A stretch of DNA of 60,633 nt from Escherichia phage Dru_SM1. How positions within the stretch are numbered: the stretch's first letter is position 1; every line of letters starts with the position of its first letter. The DNA is taken from sequence record PP596835.1. The stretch is one strand, 5' to 3'. Of the stretch, positions 570 to 55,765 are shown piece by piece. The notes under the pieces were generated by a model. That model had not been told where the DNA came from. It saw only the letters and a program-made list of their open reading frames with translations, and did not search any database. The position numbers were made by a program, and so were the translations under genes.

Positions 570-2106
570 TAACATGCCGCGAGTCGTCTGGAAACCACAT
601 CCAGGTTCACAGACACTCGCTCTATCCTGCCCCGCTGATATTATCTTATACCATGGAACTCGCGGTCCTGGAAAAACGGACTGCCAGCTTATGCGTTTCC
701 GTAAGAATGTTGGTGTAGGGTACGGTAAATTTTGGAAGGGTATTATATTCGACCGTGAATATAAAAACCTTGATGACCTTGTAACTAAATCCCAGCGTTG
801 GTTTCCTGAATTTAAAGACGGGGCTAAATTCCTTAGTTCTAAGTCTGATTATAAATGGGTTTGGCCTACTGGTGAAGAGCTACTGTTCCGCGTTGCTTGT
901 AAAGAAAAGGATTACTGGTCTTATCACGGTCACGAATACCCATTTATCGGATGGAACGAATTGACAAAATATCCGGACGGGCGTTTGTTTGAAGCTATGA
1001 TGTCCTGTAACCGTTCATCTTTCCTACCAGAAGATAACCCAATTATCAATCCAGATGGTACGGTTACATATTTACCGGATATCCCTCTTGAAGTGTTTGC
1101 TACCAGTAACCCGTTCGGTGCGGGGCATAACTGGGTTAAGAAACGCTTCATTGACGCTGCACCGATGGGTAAAATACTCAGGAAGACTACGCGAGTGTTT
1201 AACCCGAGGACGCAGAAAGACGAAGATGTGGTTACGACGCAATGCCATATCTTTGGTTCGTACCGTGAAAACAAAAACCTAAGTCCAAAATATATTGCAG
1301 AACTTATGTCTATCACAGACCCGAACAAGCGTGCTGCATGGTTGGGCGGGAGCTGGGATATTACATCCGGTGGTATGTTCGATGATCTGTGGCGTAGCAC
1401 TGTTCACAAAGTACGTCCATTCCCGATTCCATCAAGCTGGAAGATTACACGTTCTTTCGACTGGGGTTCTTCAAAACCATTCTCCGTTGGCTGGTGGGCT
1501 ATTAGTGATGGTTCGGATGTTGTACGTGAAGATGGTACTACATTCTCTACTGTACGCGGTGACTTGTTCCGTATTAACGAGTGGTACGGCACTAACGGTA
1601 AAACAAACGAAGGTCTACATTTGCTGGACTCAGAGATTGCAAGCGGTATACTGGAGCGGGAATTGGCCTGGGGTATACACGACCGTGTAGTTCCTGGACC
1701 TGCGGATAACTCTATTTGGGATCTGGAGAACAATAACTCTACCGCTGCAACAATGGCGAAGAAAATCCGTCTTAACGGCAAGCTGTATAACGGTATCCAT
1801 TGGAAGAGAAGTGATAAATCTGCTGGGTCGCGTAAACGCGGATGGCAGAAAATGCGTGAGTTTCTTAAAGCTGCATTGCGGGAAGATGCAAACGGTAAAC
1901 CTTTGCCCGGTCCGCGCGAGAATCCAGCAATGTACATTTTTGATAACTGCAACTATTTCTTTGAGCTGGTTCCAAGTCTGCCTCGCGATGAAGTGGATCA
2001 GGACGACGTTGATACGGAATGTGAAGACCATATGGGTGATGAAGTTCGTTATATGGTTCTGGATCAAGCTGTTTATACAGGTGTTGGCAAAACTATCGGT
2101 ATTTAA
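547..2106 (+). CDS. terL: terminase large subunit
   Basis: 519-aa ORF; N-terminal P-loop-like ATPase motif (YHGTRGPGKTD); acidic C-terminal region; sits between putative small subunit and portal. Confidence 0.8.
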   Translation: MELNRQPDNMPRVVWKPHPGSQTLALSCPADIILYHGTRGPGKTDCQLMRFRKNVGVGYGKFWKGIIFDREYKNLDDLVTKSQRWFPEFKDGAKFLSSKSDYKWVWPTGEELLFRVACKEKDYWSYHGHEYPFIGWNELTKYPDGRLFEAMMSCNRSSFLPEDNPIINPDGTVTYLPDIPLEVFATSNPFGAGHNWVKKRFIDAAPMGKILRKTTRVFNPRTQKDEDVVTTQCHIFGSYRENKNLSPKYIAELMSITDPNKRAAWLGGSWDITSGGMFDDLWRSTVHKVRPFPIPSSWKITRSFDWGSSKPFSVGWWAISDGSDVVREDGTTFSTVRGDLFRINEWYGTNGKTNEGLHLLDSEIASGILERELAWGIHDRVVPGPADNSIWDLENNNSTAATMAKKIRLNGKLYNGIHWKRSDKSAGSRKRGWQKMREFLKAALREDANGKPLPGPRENPAMYIFDNCNYFFELVPSLPRDEVDQDDVDTECEDHMGDEVRYMVLDQAVYTGVGKTIGI

Positions 2107-2117
2107 CTGGAGGGTAT

Positions 2118-3614
2118 ATGGGTATTGATGCAACTCACCCGCTATATGACAAGTGGAAGGACGCATGGGTTAAGTGCAACGACTGCTATGAGGGTGAAGA
2201 TAAAATTAAGGAAGAAGGTGTTAAATATCTACCACCTTTAGCTTCCATGATTATTGATGGGATGAATAATCCTAATGATTTGGGCTTTCAACGTTGGCTC
2301 GCTTATCGTCTGCGTGCTAACTTCCCTGACGATTATTCAAGTGCGGTTACAAACAATTTAGGTCTGCTACACCAGAAGCCTCCTACAATCCAGCTCCCAC
2401 CTGAAATGGAATACATGCGGGAGCTGTGTACTGCGGACGGTGAAGACATTATTGCTCTGCTACGTCGCATCAATGAAATGCAGTTAAAAAATGGACGTTT
2501 GGGCCTGCTGCTGGACTTGCCGAAAGGTGAGGATGTAAATAACAGACCTTATATTAGCGTTTATGATGCGTTATCCATTATCAACTGGGATGATGGTAAA
2601 GATGAATTGGGCAATATCAACTTGAACATGGTTGTTCTGGATGAAAGCGGTCCTGTACGTGTCAATCAGTTTGACTGGAAAGAAGAGAAGCGTTATCGCG
2701 TTCTACAATTAGGTCCAATGGACACAGATGAAGTAGCAGGTGGAGCAGTCTACTCCCAACATCTGTTTATTAACAATACCAATTATGATGAAGGGCAAAT
2801 GATTGCTCCTTATTATAAAGGTAATACGCTGGATGAAATTCCTTTCCAGTTTGTCAATACAACAGATATTACCCCAGCACCGGAAGCGCCGCCATTGTTG
2901 GGTCTTGCTAACATTTGTCTAAGCATGTACCGAAGTGACGCGGATTACCGCCAATGCTTGCATATGCAGGGTCAGGATACTTTAGTTGTTGTTGGTGGTT
3001 CCATGGAAAATGGAGATAAAGCCCCTCAGCGTATTGGTCCTGGCGCTGTCATTAACGTTGCTATTGGTGGTGACGCTAAATATGTAGGTGTTAGCGGTGA
3101 CGGTTTGTCCGAGCAACGTCTCGCACTGGCAGCGGATAAGCAGGAAGCCCAAATTAAAGCCGGGCAAATGGTAAACAACACCAAGAGCACGCAGGAATCA
3201 GGCGAAGCTATGAAAACGCGTATTGCTGCGCGTACAGCTAGCCTGATTCGAATTGCGTATACTGGTGCGGCAGGTTTGGAAAACTTGCTGAAGGTTTGCG
3301 CTAAATGGATGGGTGCTGATCCAGAGAAAGTTGTGGTTAAGCCTAATCTTGAATTTACCAAGAGCATGTTTAACGGTCAGGACTTTGTTCAAATTATTAC
3401 TGCACGCAACCTTAAGGCTCCACTCAGCTTGCAGTCTATCCATGGCTGGCTTGTTGATCAGGGCTTAACCACACTAAGCTTTGAAGAAGAAATGGCAATT
3501 CTTGAAGAAGAGCTTAAGAAGTGGCCTCTGCCCGATGATGCTAAGGCTGATTTAAACGCAGAGCAGCAAGTAAACAAAGATCCTAAGGAAGACGACGCTT
3601 CCGATAAAGAATAG
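2118..3614 (+). CDS. portal protein
   Basis: 498-aa ORF immediately after terL with GGAGGG RBS; size, acidic C-terminus and position typical of portal proteins. Confidence 0.65.
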   Translation: MGIDATHPLYDKWKDAWVKCNDCYEGEDKIKEEGVKYLPPLASMIIDGMNNPNDLGFQRWLAYRLRANFPDDYSSAVTNNLGLLHQKPPTIQLPPEMEYMRELCTADGEDIIALLRRINEMQLKNGRLGLLLDLPKGEDVNNRPYISVYDALSIINWDDGKDELGNINLNMVVLDESGPVRVNQFDWKEEKRYRVLQLGPMDTDEVAGGAVYSQHLFINNTNYDEGQMIAPYYKGNTLDEIPFQFVNTTDITPAPEAPPLLGLANICLSMYRSDADYRQCLHMQGQDTLVVVGGSMENGDKAPQRIGPGAVINVAIGGDAKYVGVSGDGLSEQRLALAADKQEAQIKAGQMVNNTKSTQESGEAMKTRIAARTASLIRIAYTGAAGLENLLKVCAKWMGADPEKVVVKPNLEFTKSMFNGQDFVQIITARNLKAPLSLQSIHGWLVDQGLTTLSFEEEMAILEEELKKWPLPDDAKADLNAEQQVNKDPKEDDASDKE

Positions 3615-5836: not shown

Positions 5837-6187
5837 ATGAGATACGAACGCTATGCACATAAACGTCAATACAAACGTTATGAGCGTCATACTTCTGAAA
5901 TTGTTCCGCCCCCAGCACCACTTCCGGTCTTTACTTCACAGCCTCAATCTGTTAGCGTAAATGAAGGCGAGCAGATTACTTTAACTGCTACTGCTGAGAA
6001 CGCTAAAAGCTATAAATGGGAAAAAGATAGTGTTCCGATGGAAAGTCAGACAACTAACACTTTAACCATTGCTTCAGCTACAACAAGTGATGCTGGAAGT
6101 TATCAGCTTGTAGCAGCTAATTCAGAAGGTAAGACTACTCGCTCTAATAAAGCAACAGTAACGGTGACTCCGACTGGCGTAGTTTAA
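5837..6187 (+). CDS. Ig-like domain protein (possible capsid decoration protein)
   Basis: 116-aa ORF; C-terminal ~85 aa have the beta-strand pattern of bacterial Ig-like domains (SVSVNEGEQITLTATAE ... DAGSYQLVAANSEG ... ATVTVTP); GAGGTG RBS. Confidence 0.5.
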   Translation: MRYERYAHKRQYKRYERHTSEIVPPPAPLPVFTSQPQSVSVNEGEQITLTATAENAKSYKWEKDSVPMESQTTNTLTIASATTSDAGSYQLVAANSEGKTTRSNKATVTVTPTGVV

Positions 6188-6251: not shown

Positions 6252-6905
6252 ATGAAAACACTAATTGAAGCACTGTTAGAACTCGATCCGGATAACCCGA
6301 ATCATTGGACTAACGATGGTTTACCTAAAGTAGACGCTCTTCGTTTTGCTACTGCTAACCCGTCTTTGACCCGCGACGATATTACGTCCGCTGCTCCACT
6401 GTTTACTCGCGACAACCGCGTGCTGGAAGAACCGGAACCTGTTGAACCAGTTAAATCCGCTGATCCAGTTTTACATGAAGCTGTTAAACAGGAGAAAGCT
6501 CATGAGGAACAAAAGAAAATCGCGGTTGCAACGATGCAAATCGAAGTTAAGATTAGCGAAGCACTGCGTGCTCTTCTGGAGCCGGAAAAAATCGGTGACA
6601 CTTCCAGCCTAAGCGATGAAGAGCTAAAAGTGAAGAGCGAAAAGCTCGGCAATGTGGTTAAAGAGATTGCTGACACCAAGCACGCGCTGGAGCTTGCTAT
6701 TGCAGACGTTCAATCGGATCTGGATAAGATTATCGTTGAGCAGGAGCGTCGTCGTCCTAAGTCCGGTCTTACTGCAACTCAGATGTATCTTGAAGCGCAG
6801 AAAAAACGTAAACCTGAAGACATGCTTTCTGACCATCGCTTCCAGAACCCTATTGACGATCCGGTTGCCCGTATGGTTGCACGTAATATGATGCGTCGAG
6901 GTTAA
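6252..6905 (+). CDS. hypothetical head-module protein
   Basis: 217-aa acidic ORF with RBS in the head gene block. Confidence 0.4.
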   Translation: MKTLIEALLELDPDNPNHWTNDGLPKVDALRFATANPSLTRDDITSAAPLFTRDNRVLEEPEPVEPVKSADPVLHEAVKQEKAHEEQKKIAVATMQIEVKISEALRALLEPEKIGDTSSLSDEELKVKSEKLGNVVKEIADTKHALELAIADVQSDLDKIIVEQERRRPKSGLTATQMYLEAQKKRKPEDMLSDHRFQNPIDDPVARMVARNMMRRG

Positions 6906-44016: not shown

Positions 44017-44481
44017 TTAAGAGTATGTACCTGTTTGAACAATGTGATTAATAGCATGTGCTCTGAAGATTTCCCTAAAATCTTCAAGTTCTATTGTAGC
44101 ACGAATTGGCTCCTTTTTAATATAATAATTGAACTCATTAATATCAAAGACGGAAGGGTTCATACATATAACAACTTTCCAACCCGCTCTAGGAATCTTA
44201 TACATTAAGACTGGGATCTTATTACATTCCTGTGCAGACTTAACAGTTTGCTTCCACCATGTGTTAACAGCAAGAGTTGCATGGTTTTTGATCTCTACAC
44301 AATATTGGCAAGTATTATCAATATCCGCACCACCTACAGCCGATTGATTTTGTCGCCTTTGTGCAATAGGTTTAGGTGGTAACGGTTTACCAATAAGCTT
44401 ATGCACTTCCGCATAAATATCGTTGAAAAAATCGCAAGCTTCCCTTTCAGCTCTCTGACCTTTTTGCCGTATGTTGACCAT
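44017..44481 (-). CDS. putative PD-(D/E)XK nuclease (possible resolvase)
   Basis: ORF 44017-44586; likely start ATG 44481; core GGADIDNTCQYCVEIK matches the D...(D/E)xK pattern. Confidence 0.4.
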   Translation of the reverse strand: MVNIRQKGQRAEREACDFFNDIYAEVHKLIGKPLPPKPIAQRRQNQSAVGGADIDNTCQYCVEIKNHATLAVNTWWKQTVKSAQECNKIPVLMYKIPRAGWKVVICMNPSVFDINEFNYYIKKEPIRATIELEDFREIFRAHAINHIVQTGTYS

Positions 44482-44959
44482 GATTTGCAAATTCCTTATG
44501 TAATTCCAATCTTTTAGTTCTAACCCAAGCTTTAGCAGCTTGCAAACCTTCAGGTGTAAGTTCAAAATATTTTGATACCAAAACACCTTTTACATGTAAG
44601 TTCGCATAATAGACTTGAATGCCATTATGTTTTGTAATAGTTACGCACTTAACACCAGTCTTTGAATCTTTACGAATAACCATATTATAATTGTTCTGTG
44701 AACGATCAGCTAGTCTAAGATTTTCTATTCTGTTATCATCTCGAACTCCGTTAATATGATCAATTATCTTGTCTTCAGGAATATCACCATTGAAGTATTG
44801 CCATATTAACCTGTGAGCGAAATAAAATCTCTTATCAATTTTACCTTGAATGTAACCGTCCTGACGTTTTGTACCAAATGGTCTTTTATTATAACCGTTT
44901 TTATTTCTTTGAAATAATTTGCCATCTATATAAATAAAGCGATCGTTTACATTGATCAT
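44447..44959 (-). CDS. HNH homing endonuclease
   Basis: HNH motif DHINGVRDDNRIENLRL; start likely ATG 44959 (MINVNDRF); 3' end overlaps the downstream nuclease gene. Confidence 0.7.
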   Translation of the reverse strand: MINVNDRFIYIDGKLFQRNKNGYNKRPFGTKRQDGYIQGKIDKRFYFAHRLIWQYFNGDIPEDKIIDHINGVRDDNRIENLRLADRSQNNYNMVIRKDSKTGVKCVTITKHNGIQVYYANLHVKGVLVSKYFELTPEGLQAAKAWVRTKRLELHKEFANHGQHTAKRSES

Positions 44960-45145
44960 GTTTACCTCCTTTATATGTATTTTAATATGAAGTAAAATCA
45001 ATCTCAATAAAAAAGCGCAACGTTTTCACGCTGCGCTTAGTTTAAATAAGGTACTTGACTATTCAGCTTCCCTTATTTCCGGTAAATTATACAGCCTCGC
45101 CAAAGGCTGGTGACGGTTTGGTACATCTGGCGCCGTCGCGTTAAA

Positions 45146-45172
45146 CATCGTTCACATCGTTCACATCGTTCA
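45146..45172. repeat. tandem repeat (CATCGTTCA)x3, with a fourth copy at ~45267
   Basis: three perfect head-to-tail 9-mers inside a 345-bp non-coding gap (45008-45352). Confidence 0.8.
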
Positions 45173-45352
45173 TTAAGTTGCGGGTTTACCCTGTCCGCTC
45201 CAGGAAGCCCAGCGAAAGTAGTTGCTGTAAGGAGGTACAGCTACCGCTTTCAAGGGCTTGAGTTAAGCATCGTTCACTAAGTTAATGTTGTTAAATTGTT
45301 AAACCTCGTTAACTGTGGTTATCTTAAAGGATGCAGTCTTGAATGGCAAGCT

Positions 45353-45670
45353 TCAATTTTGCGCGGTTCCCTTTTCCGCTTTTGGTGCTAAAGTACCATC
45401 ATTTAACATCAACTCAAAACCTGTTACTTGGTCGGTTGGAACAATAGGGTAATTCATAATAGCCATGTGGATACAATGCCCTCCGTCACATTCATCGATG
45501 TATTCATTACCCCAATAGTATAAATGCCCATCTCTTCGAATATCCATTGCTGTCGGGAAGTCTACAAGAATTCTTTTGATTTCTTTTCGTCCTTCTTTAT
45601 GCAGATTAGTTTCAATACGGATAAGCTCCGCATAAATTGCTTCACAGATAGTATTTACAATTCCCATCAC
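45353..45670 (-). CDS. hypothetical protein
   Basis: 105-aa ORF. Confidence 0.4.
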   Translation of the reverse strand: MMGIVNTICEAIYAELIRIETNLHKEGRKEIKRILVDFPTAMDIRRDGHLYYWGNEYIDECDGGHCIHMAIMNYPIVPTDQVTGFELMLNDGTLAPKAEKGTAQN

Positions 45671-45993
45671 CAGTCCGCCTTTTCTGTTTCGTTAATACAT
45701 TTTACAAGTTGATCAATACTTACATCAACGTAAATCTCACTCTGCTCAAGCTCTTTTATAAACTCATCCTCACAGCGGATTGGATTATGAAGCGATCCAA
45801 TTTCATACACTTGAACATGAGGAATAAGCGGTAAAAGATAAGTCCTTACCAGCTTGATCAGGACATGATGTTGATCTCTTTCCTGCAAATCAATATTATT
45901 GTCTTCACAAAAACCATCAATAATATCTCCGTCCCCGAAACCAAATTTACTTGCTAATCCATAAGCTCGTAATCTTAGAACGTTATCGGTCAT
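45667..45993 (-). CDS. hypothetical protein
   Basis: likely start ATG 45993 with GAGGG RBS. Confidence 0.4.
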   Translation of the reverse strand: MTDNVLRLRAYGLASKFGFGDGDIIDGFCEDNNIDLQERDQHHVLIKLVRTYLLPLIPHVQVYEIGSLHNPIRCEDEFIKELEQSEIYVDVSIDQLVKCINETEKADW

Positions 45994-46013
45994 CTTTATC
46001 ACCCTCACAAAAG

Positions 46014-46283
46014 TTACAACTTAAACTTAACTACTCTCTGGTATCTAAGAAGTTGTGTAACAACCTTATCTAATTCCGTGATACGCCGTTTAATTTTGAG
46101 CCTTTTTCGCAATTGACCAATATTATTAATGTTCAGTTTGTCTAATTCTTTTCTTAAATATGACAAAAGATTTAATTGATACTCTATGACAAACCCAATT
46201 CTAAAATAAGACCCAGTAGTAGACTGAGGCGGTATGCAGGCAGGCCACACAGGAAAATCGTCAATGTTCATTTCACACCTCAC
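46014..46283 (-). CDS. hypothetical protein
   Basis: 89-aa ORF. Confidence 0.4.
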   Translation of the reverse strand: MRCEMNIDDFPVWPACIPPQSTTGSYFRIGFVIEYQLNLLSYLRKELDKLNINNIGQLRKRLKIKRRITELDKVVTQLLRYQRVVKFKL

Positions 46284-46512
46284 AGAATGTACATAAACCA
46301 GAAATAACCAGCTACGAAAATAGCACCCGCAAATAATTTTAAAGGCTCAAACATTGTCCCCTCCGTTAACTTTATGCTGTAAGTATAGCAGGACTTACGA
46401 TGTATGCAACAACTTTAGACTTGAAATACATCTATAAAATAGCACGATTTGCCTTTACCTTTGATCCGTCTAGCTGTACTATTAACTCATAAACAGAGCG
46501 GAGGATTACAAA

Positions 46513-46737
46513 ATGGTCATGCTGAATAAAGTATATAGCACAATGGGCGCGGATTATAAAGTTGTACGTCACCCTCGTACTGGCAAATTTGAAGCATATA
46601 TCCGTCCAATGGGTGAAGGTTGGATGTATTACGGTACTTATGACGACGCTGAGCAAGCTTATAAAGAGGCGGAAAGTGCAGCGGAAGCATCCGAAATTAT
46701 GGCAAGGTACGACGTCGATGATTATTACCTTAGCTAA
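46513..46737 (+). CDS. hypothetical small protein encoded opposite to the surrounding leftward genes
   Basis: 74-aa ORF with GGAGG RBS; followed by a hairpin terminator. Confidence 0.45.
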   Translation: MVMLNKVYSTMGADYKVVRHPRTGKFEAYIRPMGEGWMYYGTYDDAEQAYKEAESAAEASEIMARYDVDDYYLS

Positions 46738-46741
46738 CAAT

Positions 46742-49124
<2,383 letters not shown>

Positions 49125-49125
49125 C

Positions 49126-49650
49126 TTATACACCCAATTTGTTACAACCATGGTTCTTGTGAAAATTGTAATCGGTTAATGCTTTACTTACAGCCATTTG
49201 TGCATCTTCAAAAGTATCGTATACTCCAAGATATTTTGAAGTCCCGTCAACGCCTATACGAGCTTGCCATTTATTAGTAGCTTTGTGAAATGTAACTCCA
49301 TTTACTCCAGAGGTATTATTGCGTTTCTTACTTTGATTTCGTCCATTTTCTTTGTGAGTAACAAGACGCAAGTTTTCAATGCGGTCGTCGTAACGAACAT
49401 GATTAATATGGTCAATCTCATACCCTTCGGGAATGGGTCCATTATGCATTTCCCATACTATACGTGAACGACGATATAGTTTACCGTTAAGGGTAATACG
49501 AACATATCCTTTATCTGTAAGCGTACCCGCAACGCAACCTTCTTTCGCTCTTGCGCCCATATCTTTCTTCCAATACAACACTCCTTCATTATATTGGAAT
49601 ATCACCGCCCATTGTGGGAAAGCTTTAATTTCAGCGGGAAACAGTTCCAT
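49126..49650 (-). CDS. HNH homing endonuclease
   Basis: 174-aa ORF; HNH motif IDHINHVRYDDRIENLRL; first 16 residues resemble the primase N-terminus. Confidence 0.7.
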   Translation of the reverse strand: MELFPAEIKAFPQWAVIFQYNEGVLYWKKDMGARAKEGCVAGTLTDKGYVRITLNGKLYRRSRIVWEMHNGPIPEGYEIDHINHVRYDDRIENLRLVTHKENGRNQSKKRNNTSGVNGVTFHKATNKWQARIGVDGTSKYLGVYDTFEDAQMAVSKALTDYNFHKNHGCNKLGV

Positions 49651-49656
49651 ATTTAA

Positions 49657-49860
49657 TTAAGACCTCCGACGCTTATCGCCTTGCATCTTTTCCAGGACGG
49701 GTTCTGCCAATGAACGTTTATAGATGTACACGCTACCGATTTTAATAGCGCCGGGAATGCATTCGCGCATTCTGGAGAGCTTAAATTTTGAAATACCGAA
49801 CTGGTTTTCAATTTCGGTAGTTGTTATATAGTTGTGATTAAATTCTTCGACGTGGGTCAT
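49657..49860 (-). CDS. small DNA-binding protein (helix-turn-helix, excisionase/AlpA-like)
   Basis: 67-aa basic ORF near the start of the leftward block; HTH-like segment. Confidence 0.45.
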   Translation of the reverse strand: MTHVEEFNHNYITTTEIENQFGISKFKLSRMRECIPGAIKIGSVYIYKRSLAEPVLEKMQGDKRRRS

Positions 49861-49921
49861 AGCTCCTCCTTTGTCCGCACACTATACACAGATAAGAGGA
49901 GCCATTGCAATGCGTTTTGCA

Positions 49922-50665
49922 TTATTGGATTTCAGTTCTTTGGTACTGCATCACGATCTGAAATACCTGATCCGGTGTTCGCCCTTCGCGCAACTGTATC
50001 ATCCATTCATCCAACTGTTCTAAACGTGCTTGAGCTTCGTTAATGTCCTTAAACGGCTGCCATGATACGGGGACACAGCCATTAACACTTAGAGTAATTG
50101 ATGTAGTCCCGTTTTCATACACTCTAAGCGCGCAAGTCGGCCAAACGCCACGCTTATCCCATACAGGCGGGTTTTCTACCGATTTATAAGTGCTATACCA
50201 TTTATTGCGAAGCGATGTTCTTTCCTTATCCGTCAACGGAGCGCCTTTAACCCTTTCATGCTCCTCCAGCCAAGCTTTAAATTTTGGGTCCGGTTTGCGC
50301 CCAACTTTTCCACCTTTCCCTTTCGCATGTTCTTTAAAAGCTTGTTCATATGGATCATTGCCATGCGATTTGTGCCAGTTAAACATACCATCATAACGTG
50401 TTATCTCTTTAGCATCCAACTCGCGTCCCAACTTATTGCTTACCCATGCGCGGAAAGCGGCTCGCTCTGGACCCCATTTACCCGTTTTCTGTCTTGTAGC
50501 TTTTTTAACAGGCTGCTCCACATCTTCGTTGAAGTAATTTTCTACCATTGCAAGCGCCTGGCTTTTAGATGGTGCACCGCGCAACCGTGAGCACTCCTGG
50601 ACGATCCATGCAGCGAAGCACAACTCCTTAACCACAGTTTTAGATGCAATCATTTCTTCACTCAT
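49922..50665 (-). CDS. hypothetical protein (first gene of leftward block)
   Basis: 247-aa Lys-rich ORF next to the control region. Confidence 0.45.
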   Translation of the reverse strand: MSEEMIASKTVVKELCFAAWIVQECSRLRGAPSKSQALAMVENYFNEDVEQPVKKATRQKTGKWGPERAAFRAWVSNKLGRELDAKEITRYDGMFNWHKSHGNDPYEQAFKEHAKGKGGKVGRKPDPKFKAWLEEHERVKGAPLTDKERTSLRNKWYSTYKSVENPPVWDKRGVWPTCALRVYENGTTSITLSVNGCVPVSWQPFKDINEAQARLEQLDEWMIQLREGRTPDQVFQIVMQYQRTEIQ

Positions 50666-50760
50666 AATAACACTCCTCGTTATAAGAATAGATTTAAGCC
50701 GTCCACAAAACTTTTACAGTATCGCAAAACCTTTAAAAGTTACGTTATAAGGGAATTATA

Positions 50761-51000
50761 TTAAAAGATAGTGCTAGTGGCAATTATAGTGGCATTACTG
50801 CGTATAGTGCGCCGTTGCTGGCTTTCAATGTCCTGCCACTATAACTGCACAAACGGCTATCACTACTATTTTGTATAAAGTATAAATTTTTGGGTTTTGC
50901 GTTACGTATAAATACCCCCTTTAAACTAAGAATTATAGTAGTAGTGGATAAACATAGTGAAATGCCACTATCACTACTTACTATAATTAATTTAATAAAA
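50761..51000. promoter_or_regulatory. iteron/operator-like repeat cluster (core TATAGTG / CACTAT, at least 8 copies in both orientations)
   Basis: 10-bp inverted repeat TATAGTGGCA (50785-50794) / TGCCACTATA (50833-50842); three direct ATAGTG copies at 17-19-bp spacing; TATCACTACT twice. Confidence 0.5.
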
Positions 51001-51290
51001 AATTGGGGTATCTGTACCAAAAACCTAAAACTTTCAGTCAACAGACTAAAAACGGATAGAAACTAAAAGTTAATAATTAATACCATAAATATATATAAAA
51101 TAAGGTTTTATTAGTAATTTATATAGTACCTATTGGTATTAGTTGACGTTCGCAAGGTCTGCTACAAAAAATCACAAAACTCACAAAAAGTGAAAGTTTG
51201 CAAGTCATGGCAAAATTGTTAATAGAATATAGTGTATGGATATACAGTATTATTCCAGATTCCGGAATAATTGGAATAATGGAATAAATT
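51001..51290. other. AT-rich non-coding region (candidate DNA unwinding element / divergent promoters)
   Basis: ~290 bp ORF-free and strongly AT-rich, with short direct repeats (TCACAAAA x2, GGAATAAT x3); between the two divergent gene blocks. Confidence 0.4.
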
Positions 51291-51456
51291 ATTGAACTAT
51301 TGTGATCGGAAGGTATATCAAGCTATAATCTGCGTTAAGGCAGAGAGGAGTTATTGCAGAGGTCCGGTAACACGGGCAGCCTCCACAGCAATAACAAGTC
51401 TACAGGAGGCTGTCTTACGTAGCGCGCGCAAAATTAAACTATTGTTTGGAGGGAAT

Positions 51457-51786
51457 ATGAGTCTTGAATGGGATTATAAAAAACACTGGTGGAAGAAAGA
51501 GCCAAAATGGAATAAATATTTTGAGTATAAGGATGGAGATTTATTCTGGAAGAAGGACTTTAAGAAATACGGCATATCCAAAGGTGATGAAGTTAAAGAT
51601 GTTTGTGCTCCGCATCTTCATTGTAAAATTTGCTTGGCACCTATTTGCCAAGGTGAAAACCGTAAAGTCTTAAGGGCTCGTGTCGTTTATGAAATGTTCC
51701 ACGGTCCACAGGGTAAAGGAGCTGTCTTCGGGAAGTATATCAACGACCCGAAGAATGACATGATTGAAAATCTTTATCTAAAATAG
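51457..51786 (+). CDS. degenerate HNH endonuclease-like protein
   Basis: ORF 51292-51786; likely start ATG 51457 (GGAGGG RBS); N-terminus matches the intact HNH genes (FEYKDGDLFWKK) but the HNH region is altered (INDPKNDMIENLYLK instead of IDHI(D/N)H...RIENLRL) and the C-terminal domain is missing. Confidence 0.4.
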   Translation: MSLEWDYKKHWWKKEPKWNKYFEYKDGDLFWKKDFKKYGISKGDEVKDVCAPHLHCKICLAPICQGENRKVLRARVVYEMFHGPQGKGAVFGKYINDPKNDMIENLYLK

Positions 51787-51817
51787 GGCTCCCGCAGAAG
51801 CCCGTTGGTTGATGTGG

Positions 51818-51952
51818 TTATAGAACTCGCCAGTTAGTGATTAAGCCTTGCGAGAGCATAAACTTGCCAGTCTGCTCCGCGTCGTAGCGGTTATTGAAAA
51901 CATCTTCTACTTCCCAATCGCTACCAAAATATTTTATTTCTAAAGTGAACAT
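51818..51952 (-). CDS. small hypothetical protein (44 aa)
   Basis: ATG 51952 with AAGGAG RBS at 7-nt spacing; below the ORF-track size cutoff. Confidence 0.3.
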   Translation of the reverse strand: MFTLEIKYFGSDWEVEDVFNNRYDAEQTGKFMLSQGLITNWRVL

Positions 51953-52005
51953 AATAAACTCCTTTGCTGTTAATGATATAATTATAGGTCAGCTTGAAGG
52001 AAAGA

Positions 52006-52620
52006 TCAAGCATCTAAACCATTATATTTGCGCCAGGCGTAGAACTGAATGGCTACCGTTGTTCCGTTGTAAGAAGGCATTGCTGCTTTCATTTCTTTCA
52101 GCTCCGGCGTGCGGCCCAGTTCCTTCAGAAGCTTGTCACCCATTGCCCACACTTCGGCAGTTTTTCCTTTGAGCGGCTTGCGAGCGCCATTTTTGAAATC
52201 GCAGCGAGCAGTTTTTACATCCTGTTTTGGCGCGGCAGCTTTTGGCTCTTCAATTTTGATTTCAGAAACCTGCGTGGCAGCTTTTGCATGTTTCATATCT
52301 TTCTCTTCCTCCTGCTCCAAAGCTTCGAGGCAGCTTTTGACAATTTCCGGATTTACCATCGGGCGCAGTACCGAGACGCTGGAAGCTGGCGCGGCGGTCG
52401 GTGCCGGGACTTTCTGCTCCGGCTGTTGCGCTTTTTTATGGTCGCGCAGTACCTGAAGCACTTCCTTCTCGACGATGTAAAAACCAATCTCGTCCTGATG
52501 GATTAACTGTTCGTGTGCGTCGCGTGCAACCTGACCCCAGCGAGTCTTAAGGGCACGGCGTGCATTCGTTTTCATGGTGTAGCGCATTTTGTCCTGTTCG
52601 CGGTGAGTTACTTTAGACAT
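52006..52620 (-). CDS. hypothetical protein
   Basis: ORF 52006-52665; likely start ATG 52620 with AAAGGAG RBS; Ala/Pro/Lys-rich central linker. Confidence 0.45.
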   Translation of the reverse strand: MSKVTHREQDKMRYTMKTNARRALKTRWGQVARDAHEQLIHQDEIGFYIVEKEVLQVLRDHKKAQQPEQKVPAPTAAPASSVSVLRPMVNPEIVKSCLEALEQEEEKDMKHAKAATQVSEIKIEEPKAAAPKQDVKTARCDFKNGARKPLKGKTAEVWAMGDKLLKELGRTPELKEMKAAMPSYNGTTVAIQFYAWRKYNGLDA

Positions 52621-52693
52621 GGTATAGCTCCTTTCGTTAATATTAGTTTGCTTATTACTGCCCACCGTAATGATGAGCAGTGTATAAGAAAAC

Positions 52694-52942
52694 TTATTGC
52701 ACGATTGCTACGAAATCGGCGGTTGCGATATCCATGCTTGCGAAAGCATGGATGCCATAGTCGGTGTCGTTTTCGGCGTTAAACGCTTTGAGGAACTGCT
52801 GTACTGCCGCTTTATGGTTAAGCGTTACGTCGATAGCATAGTCCCAGCTATAGACTTTGCGCTTGCCAAAACCTTTAACTGCAATGCGTGCGCCTTTGGT
52901 GTTAGTTGGTGCCAAAAATTTGGTGATGATAGAAGTAGCCAT
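52694..52942 (-). CDS. hypothetical protein
   Basis: 82-aa ORF. Confidence 0.4.
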   Translation of the reverse strand: MATSIITKFLAPTNTKGARIAVKGFGKRKVYSWDYAIDVTLNHKAAVQQFLKAFNAENDTDYGIHAFASMDIATADFVAIVQ

Positions 52943-53013
52943 AATGTAATCCTCTTTTTGTTTAAGTTGACTTATTATTGCCCAGTCAGATCAACTAGGC
53001 AAGATATAAATCA

Positions 53014-53177
53014 ACTATTTTCGCTTACATAATCCAGTGCAGCTTCGAGGAAATAAAATTCTTCCTGCTTATATAAGCTGATTGCCCACTCCAGCTGAGC
53101 GCGGGTAAGGTGGCGATATTTGTTGTCGATGCAGTAGCTGCGACCGAAGTACATAATAGTGAAGTATGAGCTGGACA
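53014..53177 (-). CDS. small hypothetical protein (54 aa)
   Basis: ATG 53177 with GGAGG RBS; more protein-like than the overlapping 72-aa ORF in another frame. Confidence 0.3.
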
Positions 53178-53396
53178 TAACGCGCCTCCAAGTGTGGTTA
53201 AGAAGTAGTACCGTGTTGCTATGGGTACATAATAGCGATGCATTGTGATATTGAATAGGCCAAACGTGCTATTTTGATATTGTTTTGCATCTAGTGAAAA
53301 TTATGCTTGCCCTGCATGTTTAGCACTAATGGCCTAACTAACATCACATCATCTGGAGTATTCGCGCAGGCGTACACATGCTTATAAGGTGGTGCC

Positions 53397-53510
53397 GGAT
53401 CGACCAGGTGGGAGCGGTGCACAGGATCGACCAGGGGCATCCGGCGCCCTGCGTGTGCGGAGCCTACCAGGTGGGAGCAGCTCCTGCGTGTGCCGGAAAT
53501 ACCAGGTGCG
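53397..53510. repeat. GC-rich degenerate direct repeats (ACCAGGTGGGAGC x2, GATCGACCAGG x2, CTGCGTGTGC x2)
   Basis: four ACCAGG(T)G units ~26-37 bp apart in a GC-rich island within a divergent intergenic region. Confidence 0.5.
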
Positions 53511-53562
53511 CGCGAGCCCATGCACTTTACAAAATATTTTTATAAAAAGTGCAAAAAGGTGT

Positions 53563-53590
53563 AGACATATGATCGGTCTAGCACTACTAT
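53563..53590 (+). promoter_or_regulatory. candidate promoter for the rightward small genes (TAGACA-N16-TACTAT)
   Basis: -35/-10-like hexamers ~50 nt upstream of the ATG at 53640; weak. Confidence 0.25.
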
Positions 53591-53639
53591 ATACACATAC
53601 CGCAAGGGTACTACAAATTAACTCAAAGGGGTTTACATC

Positions 53640-53843
53640 ATGTCTATTCGTAACGTTATCTGTGTAATGGTTGCAAACAATAATTTTGGTTTCGTAGAAG
53701 GTGCAGAGTATAAAATGGATCTTAAAACTCGTTGCATTATTAAAGGTGAAGAGGAATGGCGTGCAGTAGTAGAAGATTGCGGAGATATCTACATCTATAG
53801 TTCTGATACAATGAAAACTATCGCTGTCTTCGAATTTAACTAA
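53640..53843 (+). CDS. hypothetical protein
   Basis: 67-aa ORF with RBS. Confidence 0.4.
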   Translation: MSIRNVICVMVANNNFGFVEGAEYKMDLKTRCIIKGEEEWRAVVEDCGDIYIYSSDTMKTIAVFEFN

Positions 53844-53911
53844 GCTAACTTATACAATGGGCATTAATACAGTGCCCATTAATAAGCTAACTAATTATAA
53901 CGAGGTGTATT

Positions 53912-54097
53912 ATGTCTACGGACACTGTGAAGTCTGTAAATAATAGCAACAGAACATTTAAAGTTATGTATTATGGTCAGGACGTTGGTCAGGTCAAGGC
54001 GCCCAGCCGTATCGTGGCGGAAGAGTTCGTCCGTACAGAGATGCAACTTGGAATCGCCGATTTTGGCGCCATCGTTAAACTGGTAGAGGTGTACTAA
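53912..54097 (+). CDS. hypothetical protein
   Basis: 61-aa ORF with GAGGTG RBS. Confidence 0.4.
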   Translation: MSTDTVKSVNNSNRTFKVMYYGQDVGQVKAPSRIVAEEFVRTEMQLGIADFGAIVKLVEVY

Positions 54098-54098
54098 T

Positions 54099-54239
54099 AT
54101 GCCACGCAAATACACGCTTACACGCGCACAGCACGCGCTATTAATTGCAGCAATGCGCGCAGAATATGCAGTTCATGGCTGGCATAGTGCCATGATGCGC
54201 GGTAAAAGCATATATGCGGACATGCGCTCGCAAGGATAA
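54099..54239 (+). CDS. small hypothetical protein (46 aa)
   Basis: ATG 54099 directly after the upstream stop; basic; below the ORF-track cutoff. Confidence 0.3.
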   Translation: MPRKYTLTRAQHALLIAAMRAEYAVHGWHSAMMRGKSIYADMRSQG

Positions 54240-54730
54240 CGCACACAGCAGCACCACAGCGAGCTAAAGCTCAAAGGTAATGGTAATGCATTACCAACAC
54301 ACAACGAGCACGCTGTACCCCACAAAGCGGCGCTAATTTCAACACTCACAGGCCGTACGAGTTAACGTACAGCCTGCTCTGCTATATGCACGCCCCATAC
54401 ACAGCCAGCTCACGATATACATTAATATAATAACGAATGAAATAGATTCGTCTGGAAGAATAACAGATCTTGCAGTCACAGACCGGTCCAATGAGCCGAC
54501 TCATAGACCCCACCTAGGATCATCAGGGTACTAATAATCACCCGAGGGCGCCTTATCCATCCTGATAGTAAGTCCACGCCTAAATCTCACCTGTCACATA
54601 GCCTATCCACCTATATGCGAAGGCAGACCCGACCCACCTTAGAATCTACCCTATCAACATATTCATCATTGAAAAATCTGTGGGTTATTGCTAAAATATA
54701 GATGACAAAAAATTGATCGAAGGTATTGAA

Positions 54731-55204
54731 ATGAACTGGAATGATATATTTGAATACAGAGATGGTGTTTTGTATTGGAAGCTGAGTAGGCGATGTATAA
54801 ACGCAGGCGACAGAGCAGGATGTGTTCAAGAGGATGGATACACGAGAATAGTATTTGAAGGTAAGCAATACCTGCGACACCGCATAGTGTGGTTAATGCA
54901 CGGAAGAACTATTCCGAAAGGTATGGAAATTGATCACATTGACCATGACCGCCAAAATGACCGAATTGAAAATTTACGTTTAGTTAGTGCTGTAGTAAAC
55001 TGTCAAAATAAAGGAAAATATATCAGTAACACAAGCGGCGTCACTGGTGTAAGTTGGGACAGAAAGAATTTAAAATGGTTTGTAACTATAAGAGTGAATA
55101 AAAAGAATGTATTTTTAGGTCGTTTTGACAAATTCGATGAAGCAGTTAAGGTACGAAAGGAAGCGGAATTGCTGTATAATTTCCACGAAAATCACGGTAA
55201 ATGA
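54731..55204 (+). CDS. HNH homing endonuclease
   Basis: HNH motif IDHIDHDRQNDRIENLRL; likely start ATG 54731 (GAAGG RBS). Confidence 0.7.
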   Translation: MNWNDIFEYRDGVLYWKLSRRCINAGDRAGCVQEDGYTRIVFEGKQYLRHRIVWLMHGRTIPKGMEIDHIDHDRQNDRIENLRLVSAVVNCQNKGKYISNTSGVTGVSWDRKNLKWFVTIRVNKKNVFLGRFDKFDEAVKVRKEAELLYNFHENHGK

Positions 55205-55223
55205 TGGTTAAGCAGAGGAAATT

Positions 55224-55421
55224 GTGAGACTTGGACCTTATCTTGGTTATTATGGTCGGGCTTTTTGGAATGATGAAACTAAAAGGTTTGAAGGTTGGCT
55301 AATTACACCTGAACGTTTTACATTTCATAGTGTAAAAGAGAAAAATATCGTTCTTAATTTTCAAAAATGTGTCACTAAATATGTAGAGGAGCAAGAAGAA
55401 TGTCTTATGTGTCAGCATTAG
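55224..55421 (+). CDS. hypothetical protein
   Basis: 65-aa ORF. Confidence 0.35.
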   Translation: MRLGPYLGYYGRAFWNDETKRFEGWLITPERFTFHSVKEKNIVLNFQKCVTKYVEEQEECLMCQH

Positions 55422-55765
55422 AAGCTGCTGGATGCGAAGTATTAGATTTTGTTGAGTTTGGTTGTTATCAGGGTGAATGGCTTGCCCTGATAAGAAAAGA
55501 TGGTGTATTGGGAGTTTGCGAAGGGTCTTATGGATCATGCTCTGGTTGCGATTCATTTCAAGCTGAATTTGGCTGGGGTGATGAGGAAAGTCCCGATTAT
55601 CAGAAACGTCTTGCTGAATTTGGTGAAAGTTACTTACCAGCTAACAGCTTTGAAGAAATGATCGCCAAACTTCAAAAGGATATTGAGAATTATGATTGGG
55701 ATGACGATTATAAATCTATGCTAGAAACTGTTCGTGAATGGCAGAAAAATATAGGACAAGTATAA
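55400..55765 (+). CDS. hypothetical protein
   Basis: 121-aa acidic ORF with several Cys (CEGSYGSCSGC). Confidence 0.4.
   Translation: MSYVSALEAAGCEVLDFVEFGCYQGEWLALIRKDGVLGVCEGSYGSCSGCDSFQAEFGWGDEESPDYQKRLAEFGESYLPANSFEEMIAKLQKDIENYDWDDDYKSMLETVREWQKNIGQV

Follow-up and report, generated by a model that had tools for sequence, protein, structure and literature searches.

Putative homing endonuclease genes and a maintained, nuclease-dead HNH derivative in the Seuratvirus Escherichia phage Dru_SM1

Escherichia phage Dru_SM1 (sequence record PP596835.1) belongs to the genus Seuratvirus (Queuovirinae) and has E. coli as its host. The DNA analysed here, referred to as the window, comprises 60,633 nucleotides (nt) and contains three intact genes of HNH nucleases, HNH1 (44447-44959, minus strand), HNH2 (49126-49650, minus strand) and HNH4 (54731-55204, plus strand), as well as a related open reading frame (ORF) of only 109 amino acids (aa; 51457-51786, plus strand). 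A probable explanation of the whole set is that three homing genes were acquired separately, that HNH2 captured the leader of the primase gene, and that a fourth copy, dead as a nuclease, has been maintained. HNH homing endonuclease genes are commonplace in phages, and their presence alone would be ordinary.

Intact HNH genes and their distribution

The initial annotation placed three intact HNH genes with a shared catalytic motif at these positions, and this was borne out by the searches against Pfam and PHROG and by the residues retained. HNH1 (170 aa; E 3.7e-21), HNH2 (E 5.5e-21) and HNH4 (157 aa; E 3.3e-17) match the Pfam family HNH_3 (PF13392) with scores of 62-75 bits, the gathering cut-off being 24.8 bits, and match PHROG 99 (HNH endonuclease) with E values from 3e-45 for HNH1 to 2e-65. 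The catalytic beta-beta-alpha-metal residues, IDHI(N/D)...N(D/N)RIENLRL...N..N, are retained in all three proteins, including the D-H pair of the general base, the structural Asn of NDRIENL and the distal Asn metal ligand. The N-terminal segment FxY(R/K)DGxL(Y/F)WK, which had also been described as common to the HNH genes, is matched only loosely by HNH1, where it reads FIYIDGKLFQR and departs from the 'LYWK' motif. Against the PDB, the family profile found I-HmuI (1U3E) with an E value of 3.4e-7, and its C-terminal part found the AP2 domain of WRI1 (E 3.1e-6). The matches to Pfam AP2 itself were below the gathering cut-off of 33.3 bits in HNH2 (20.2 bits, E 7e-4) and HNH4 (16.6 bits), and the C-terminus of HNH1 is more divergent in this AP2-like region than those of the other two. 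Judging by these matches, HNH1, HNH2 and HNH4 encode intact HNH_3 nucleases of the I-HmuI-like type, whose C-terminal domain is probably AP2-like. When the ORFs of all six frames of the window were scanned with a profile, no further HNH copies were found.

The 13.5 kb surrounding the HNH genes gave matches in 37 phage records, mostly of Escherichia phages of the genus Seuratvirus. The best of them, vB_EcoS_SA126VB, is 94% identical across 74% of the stretch, and none of the 37 matching records covers at least 80% of it; the portions without coverage are variable cassettes, namely the HNH sites and the slot of the 109-aa ORF. Presence or absence of the HNH genes was judged among about 33 sequenced relatives, and each intact gene was found in only two to four of them. 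In the phage database, HNH1 occurs only in SA126VB (98.7% nt identical), VogelGryff and OddieOddie; HNH2 is matched over its full length at the DNA level in ECP2304 and SA80RD only; HNH4 is carried by Skure, WildeMaa and phiG7 (95% nt identical), with a diverged 74% allele in SA80RD. Seurat and GottfriedDienst have none of the three. The few other Seuratviruses with these genes hold them at the same site as 89-99% nt-identical copies. The HNH1, HNH2 and HNH4 proteins are only 29-47% identical to each other, so they represent different lineages and not duplicates made inside the genome. Site 1 of SA80RD is occupied by yet another HNH lineage (37% identical), and CAjan and Skure have HNH genes at two additional sites. 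The G+C content of all four HNH-family genes is 32-38% (32% in HNH1) versus 44% for the genome. The sporadic distribution, the low mutual identity and the low G+C content together form the pattern of free-standing homing endonuclease genes.

Close relatives differ in the presence or absence of each gene at a fixed site, and comparison of the insertion sites with those of HNH-free relatives, a check proposed with the initial annotation, found the empty sites to be clean, with segments of the neighbouring genes re-coded or replaced in the HNH-carrying genomes at each of sites 1, 2 and 4. At site 1, positions 44464-45086 of the window stand in place of 181 nt in HNH1-less phages. The final 35 nt of HNH1 overlap a PDDEXK_15 nuclease gene (44017-44481, minus strand; Pfam E 2.8e-13), and it is the 5' start of the latter that is overlapped, not its 3' end as previously stated. 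All genomes with an occupied site 1 have a different allele of this nuclease, which shares about 60% aa identity with that of empty-site genomes; at the DNA level the gene of Dru_SM1 either cannot be aligned with HNH1-less relatives or is 67% identical to them, as opposed to 86-96% identity to those with an occupied site. A consensus scan revealed a terminator-like hairpin (45038-45013) and, behind it, a promoter-like site (45007-44979) directly upstream of HNH1 (44979-45038, minus strand), within the inserted block, and the SA126VB record annotates a promoter at the equivalent place. At site 4, 583 nt of the window (54617-55199) stand in place of 231 nt in HNH4-less relatives, and the block includes a promoter-like site (54669-54697; promoter scan). 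According to the alignment of HNH4-carrying and HNH4-less relatives, the gene downstream of HNH4, a homologue of CAjan gp76 (55224-55421, plus strand), has in the carriers a GTG start, lacks 22 N-terminal codons and is re-coded in about its first 35 codons; past this stretch it is nearly identical in both groups. The re-coded form is common to all four HNH4 carriers, and the identity at 55200-55402 is 80% to HNH4-less phages versus 90% to HNH4-carrying ones.

It is thus well supported, from the comparison of these genomes, that the three intact genes are free-standing homing endonuclease genes acquired separately, their cleavage and homing activities being predicted. During a mixed infection each enzyme would nick or cut the genome of a related phage whose allele is HNH-less, close to the point at which its own gene is inserted, and repair off the HNH-carrying genome would copy in the HNH gene plus a stretch of the neighbouring gene. 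The co-copied stretch differs in sequence, and thus the carrier itself would be no target; these changes in the neighbouring sequences would be what blocks cleavage of the carriers. At site 1, HNH1 would travel with the divergent PDDEXK nuclease allele, and at site 4, HNH4 would travel with the shortened and re-coded 5' part of the gp76-like gene.

Some other features were observed near such sites. In Skure an HNH gene is situated between the dUTPase and nuclease genes (2079-3157 of the sequence examined), a site differing from those of the window, and in the annotation of this phage the nuclease ORF has 31 additional N-terminal residues not present in the other alleles. The gp76-like gene of Dru_SM1 ends in ..EECLMCQH*, and those of the relatives in ..EECV*. 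It is followed by an ORF of 121 aa (55400-55765, plus strand), and the region 55403-55757 has no DNA match in six relatives (L001-L006), so it looks like another variable cassette beside HNH4.

HNH2 inside the primase reading frame

The gene next to HNH2 encodes a putative primase/helicase of 778 aa (46788-49124, minus strand), which carries the Pfam domains DUF3987 and NrS-1 polymerase HBD and is annotated as a primase in relatives. The primase of every HNH2-less relative opens with ATGGAACTGTTTCCCGCTGAAATTAAAGCTTTCCCACAATGGGCGGT..., i.e. MELFPAEIKAFPQWAV followed by AD. In the window, the native primase start and codons 2-16 (MELFPAEIKAFPQWAV; 49603-49650, minus strand) form an in-frame N-terminal leader of HNH2. 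This leader is preceded by the native primase upstream region with its ribosome-binding site (RBS) and followed by the HNH2 body, codons 17-174 and the stop (49126-49602, minus strand), which holds the HNH_3 nuclease and the AP2-like C-terminal domain. The 48 nt of the leader are the first 48 nt of the CAjan primase gene, with differences of a few bases to other HNH2-less relatives, and in the window, in SA80RD and in ECP2304 they run in frame into the HNH2 body. Most HNH2 homologues are 150-165 aa long and cover about 90% of the query, that is, they are without the leader. Automatic annotation hides the primase origin of the first 16 codons of HNH2.

As had been noted before, HNH2 abuts the primase start: its stop codon (49126-49128) and the primase ATG, which begins at 49124, are separated by a spacer of 1 nt. 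Codons 1-25 of this primase (MKLFPDEIKQYNQWAIAGEDKRPLI; 49050-49124, minus strand) are a variant sequence, differing from CAjan at 26 of 75 nt, and the native sequence is back from codon 26, with 10 differences in the 225 nt of codons 26-100. The variant 5' end was found complete only in the two other HNH2 carriers, ECP2304 and SA80RD, and it is identical to the upstream leader at 32 of 48 positions. Consistent with this arrangement, a single segment of SA126VB (6461-6510) matches the window twice, at 49078-49127 and 49604-49653, on either side of the insert. In common with the mobile elements described for the atp6 gene of Allomyces, the ORF of the endonuclease and the host gene are in phase, and a terminal segment of the host gene is duplicated, one copy being native and the other divergent.

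HNH2 is inserted in the primase ORF behind codon 16 and would be translated from the native primase RBS and start, with the 16 opening primase codons as its N-terminus. The cassette brings 25 variant primase codons of its own after the HNH2 stop, so that a full-length primase would still be made, probably through translational coupling to HNH2. The target of HNH2 probably spans the highly conserved native primase sequence of about codons 14-25, which is split in carriers; the replacement 5' end would remove the right half-site of this target, and its identity of 32/48 to the leader would also limit recombination that deletes the element.

A second cassette of this kind was found in a 60-kb contig (L013), where an HNH2 homologue (P0014, 57% identical) has the same native primase leader, here of 14 codons, and stands directly upstream of the primase, which restarts behind a strong AAGGAGG RBS. 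Codons 1-17 of the primase in this contig are changed at 18 of 51 nt, affecting 14 of the 17 codons, with only three amino-acid changes. In both cassettes Trp14 of the leader occupies the position of the conserved N-terminal Trp of the HNH family, and this coincidence suggests that the junction was made at a short Trp match. The two junctions differ by 6 nt. A scan of IMG/VR for the native primase leader returned only two contigs, both with plain primases. In another 57-kb contig, an HNH2 homologue (P0062, 298 aa) is fused in one polypeptide to the domain of the Holliday-junction resolvase RusA (PF05866).

Part of the variant primase 5' end (49080-49123) is similar to the beginning of the primase gene in Nonagvirus phages (9g, JenP1, SE1), with 84% identity over 44 nt, which hints that the HNH2 cassette may have passed through a more distant Queuovirinae lineage. 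Direct copying of this end from Nonagvirus was considered and rejected, as the similarity extends over only 44 nt at 84% and the Nonagvirus primase diverges right after it.

The 109-aa ORF and its slot

The 109-aa ORF has no Pfam match, so it is not a scoring member of HNH_3. It does match HNH genes of Jerseyvirus in tblastn (E 6e-7) and PHROG 99 (E 7.9e-6), in the same region of the profile as the intact HNH genes, and a profile search with the protein among 1.84 billion representatives reached full-length HNH proteins at E values of about 1e-5. By these alignments it is clearly a true homologue of the HNH nucleases, and the possibility, raised with the initial annotation, that the four copies would turn out not to be related on alignment is dismissed for this ORF. 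The loss of the catalytic residues and of the C-terminal domain, reported at the same time, was also confirmed. Where the enzymes read IDHIN...NDRIENLRLV, the 109-aa ORF reads FGKYIN...NDMIENLYLK*, having lost the D-H pair, and its early stop precedes the distal Asn metal ligand and the AP2-like domain. An AlphaFold (AF2) model built from 12 sequences had a predicted local distance difference test (pLDDT) score of 75, and its best match in the PDB was I-HmuI (1U3E; prob 0.99, TMq 0.55). The protein is basic, with an isoelectric point of 9.2 and 19 Lys residues.

The same 330-nt ORF is annotated in SLUR76/SLUR26, automatic annotation labelling this dead copy 'HNH endonuclease' in the SLUR76 record, and two copies are of metagenomic origin (P0001 on contig L009 and P0002 on contig L010). 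All four copies keep the 109 codons, an identical stop, the FGKYIN motif and an invariant stretch of the last 21 residues, at a nucleotide identity of 76-88%. Across the six pairs dS is 0.6-2.0 and dN 0.06-0.16, giving dN/dS ratios of 0.06-0.18, and the synonymous excess is significant in every pair (p from 1.7e-13 to 7.4e-7). For comparison, dN/dS is 0.08-0.25 in the intact HNH genes and 0.10 in the neighbouring gp68-like gene. No long opposite-strand ORF able to explain the constraint was found. The constant length, stop and dead motif, together with these ratios, argue that the ORF is maintained and is not an eroding pseudogene. Homology to the nucleases, catalytic loss and purifying selection, the marks of a domesticated derivative, are found together here, and on this sequence record the 109-aa protein is a maintained, nuclease-dead HNH_3 derivative. 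Of the repeated invasion and decay proposed by the initial annotation, the invasion is upheld by the distinct lineages, the sporadic presence and the altered neighbours, and the decay is not, as 51457-51786 is conserved with dN/dS of 0.06-0.18.

The ORF is part of a cassette (51330-51783) located in a slot between elements of 44 and 41 nt, whose conservation across all Seuratviruses is 97-100%; in relatives other small genes, gp66 or Seurat64, fill the slot. The expression region of the gene (51286-51456, plus strand) comprises the 44-nt element, a leader of 100 nt (51330-51429) and an RBS, GGAGGG. The 44-nt element (51286-51329) holds a promoter-like site, TTGTGA-18-TATAAT (51300-51329), and is 97-99% conserved across Seuratviruses. 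The right flank (51784-51824, 41 nt, 97-100% identical in ORF-less relatives) begins exactly at the TAG stop of the ORF, which fits an origin of the ORF via truncation at the slot boundary. Its G+C-rich hairpin (51786-51803) scores as a minus-strand terminator in a terminator scan.

The 100-nt leader is 89-99% identical among the four copies, and the synonymous sites of the ORF are 40-70% different; the 28 nt after the leader are 61-68% identical in most pairs. In the other copies the leader was located at 1545-1646 (L007), 5876-5976 (L009) and about 450-550 (L010). It is predicted to fold into a long hairpin of -36 kcal/mol with one compensatory pair, not clearly more stable than shuffled sequences (z -1.47), and neither Rfam nor ARAGORN gave a match in the leader and slot region. 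The ORF descends from the enzyme family of the intact genes; it was probably truncated where the variable slot ends and lost its catalytic residues, and selection has since retained it as a small, basic protein. By analogy with other derivatives of this kind, its most probable role would be in nucleic-acid binding or regulation, not in cutting DNA. The possible roles may include that of a DNA/RNA-binding regulator acting on its own unusually conserved 100-nt leader, or that of a homing-site protector directed against related enzymes.

Phages without the 109-aa ORF have, after the 44-nt promoter-like element, an element of about 72 nt (GCGCTTAATCGCGGGATATTGGAGGAGG...GGGCTGGCCCGGA), which was invariant in 7 of the 7 relatives read (e.g. 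L001 8098-8213 and L004 7850-7965, including the promoter element) and has no tRNA or Rfam match. What follows the conserved promoter may be a small RNA of the phage that exists in two alternative versions; no alignment of the leader and the 72-nt element to a common structure was obtained. On the other side of the slot, an unlisted ORF of 44 codons (MFTLEIKYFGSDWEVEDVFNNRYDAEQTGKFMLSQGLITNWRVL; 51818-51952, minus strand) carries a strong AAGGAG RBS as well as a promoter-like site (52009-51981), and is shared with VogelGryff at 94%. In CAjan and in contig L009 an HNH gene of the gp67 type is located exactly at the position of this ORF.

Alternative explanations and known systems

Several other explanations can be proposed for these genes. 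The primase leader of HNH2 might be an accident of ORF calling, the true start lying further in and the 48-nt repeat being a neutral remnant, given that most family members begin at a conserved M-N-W motif and have no leader. However, HNH2 has no in-frame ATG, GTG or TTG with an RBS near the usual family start, its first internal Met is residue 31, within the conserved N-terminal sheet, W14 of the leader substitutes for the conserved Trp of the family, and the reading frame is preserved across three HNH2 carriers and the P0014 cassette, be the latter independent or diverged; an accident therefore seems unlikely. It is quite unlikely that the HNH genes are working parts of the phage passed on stably by vertical inheritance, such as packaging or replication helpers resembling the HK97 terminase-associated HNH. 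The purifying selection on the intact genes and the translational tie of HNH2 to the primase would agree with such a role, but most Seuratviruses are without each gene and two are without all of them, different HNH lineages occupy one site (site 1 in SA80RD, site 2 in L013), other relatives carry HNH genes at other sites, and the combination of an I-HmuI-like nuclease with AP2 is that of known homing enzymes.

For 51457-51786, decay of a pseudogene left by an old invasion would account for the missing D-H pair, final metal ligand and entire C-terminal domain, for the absence of a Pfam match, and for a stop that coincides with the first base of a conserved flank, as is expected from truncation by recombination or deletion. 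This reading is largely refuted, and we consider it very unlikely, because four copies separated by dS of 0.6-2.0 keep the 109 codons, the stop and the invariant 21-residue C-terminus, the dN/dS of 0.06-0.18 in six of six pairs (p <= 7e-7) equals that of functional neighbours, and the ORF has its own RBS, promoter-like site and conserved leader. The common domain architecture and N-terminal motif might also be taken to mean that all four genes are duplicates of one HNH gene that diverged within this genome. This is hardly credible, since the four are only 20-47% identical to each other, since each has 89-99% nt-identical same-site copies elsewhere, and since, among full-length relatives, those closest to the 109-aa protein are HNH genes of Jerseyvirus and not those of the window.

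Some points do weigh against the separate acquisition of three homing genes and the maintenance of a dead fourth copy. The purifying selection on the intact HNH genes (dN/dS 0.08-0.25) fits active homing and equally a role beneficial to the host, and the 7-deazaguanine modifications of Seuratvirus DNA might block or alter cleavage by HNH enzymes. The two primase-site cassettes differ by 6 nt in their junctions and are 57% identical in their HNH bodies, but their replacement segments share some derived bases (AATCAGTGGGCTAT), so both may descend from one old insertion and not from two. As to the 109-aa protein, an earlier model from three sequences was poor (pLDDT 42), and the 12-sequence alignment behind the usable model consists mostly of true nucleases. 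Just four copies of the gene are known, forming one cluster in the 1.84 billion representatives; a word-indexed protein search added only two further copies and the exhaustive search only this one cluster, so no wider family of dead HNH proteins was found in these searches.

With the I-HmuI/I-HmuII-type enzymes of the Bacillus phages SPO1 and SP82 (1U3E) the intact genes share the N-terminal beta-sheet and the beta-beta-alpha-metal nuclease domain, the D-H general base and the Asn ligands being conserved in all three; I-HmuI, however, is intron-encoded and has a helix-turn-helix end, whereas the genes of the window are free-standing with an AP2-like end. The maintained 109-aa protein can be compared with endonuclease derivatives that are domesticated or dead. 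The Smad MH1 domain is a degraded His-Me finger nuclease. CapR of the PLE (phage-inducible chromosomal island-like element) satellites of Vibrio is another such derivative, a domesticated endonuclease as cited in PMC10448857. Like these, the 109-aa protein has a His-Me/HNH fold, no catalytic residues and a record of purifying selection. It has no AP2-like domain, so that DNA binding would rest on the N-terminal sheet alone, and its family is very small, only four copies being known, each of them in a Seuratvirus-like genome.

The free-standing homing endonuclease genes of T4-like phages (seg/mob) and of ICP1 phages mark the boundaries of genetic exchange (PMC10448857). The genes of Dru_SM1 are similar to them in being intergenic or gene-adjacent, sporadic among close relatives and sited where identity to relatives drops, and in the co-inheritance of polymorphisms in neighbouring genes; they differ in belonging to a Seuratvirus and in that HNH2 lies inside the primase ORF with a borrowed start and is not intergenic. 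For site 2, the closest described parallel appears to be the mobile ORFs of fungal mitochondria (Allomyces macrogynus atp6; Glomus atp6, atp9, cox2 and nad3), which import a divergent segment coding for the C-terminus, the native C-terminus remaining downstream as a duplicated, unused remnant (PMC3630166). There, too, the endonuclease is in phase with the host gene and the terminal segment is present in a native and a divergent version with mostly synonymous differences. However, the 3' end is replaced in mitochondria and the 5' end here, where the native N-terminal codons have become the start of the endonuclease, and the mitochondrial elements encode LAGLIDADG or GIY-YIG enzymes in an organelle, as opposed to HNH in a phage. 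The phage case would thus be a mirror image at the 5' end.

That the primase-site cassettes represent a distinct way into an essential gene, free of introns and inteins, and that the 109-aa protein is at the same time domesticated with a function of its own, is a tentative proposal, which we doubt slightly more readily than we accept. If the arrangement at site 2 is read correctly, an essential primase gene can host a selfish nuclease without splicing, its own start being reused and a re-coded substitute 5' end being provided, and primase codons of about 14-25 become a candidate target for the mapping of cleavage. The dead copy under selection would be a small, testable case of a selfish nuclease becoming something else.

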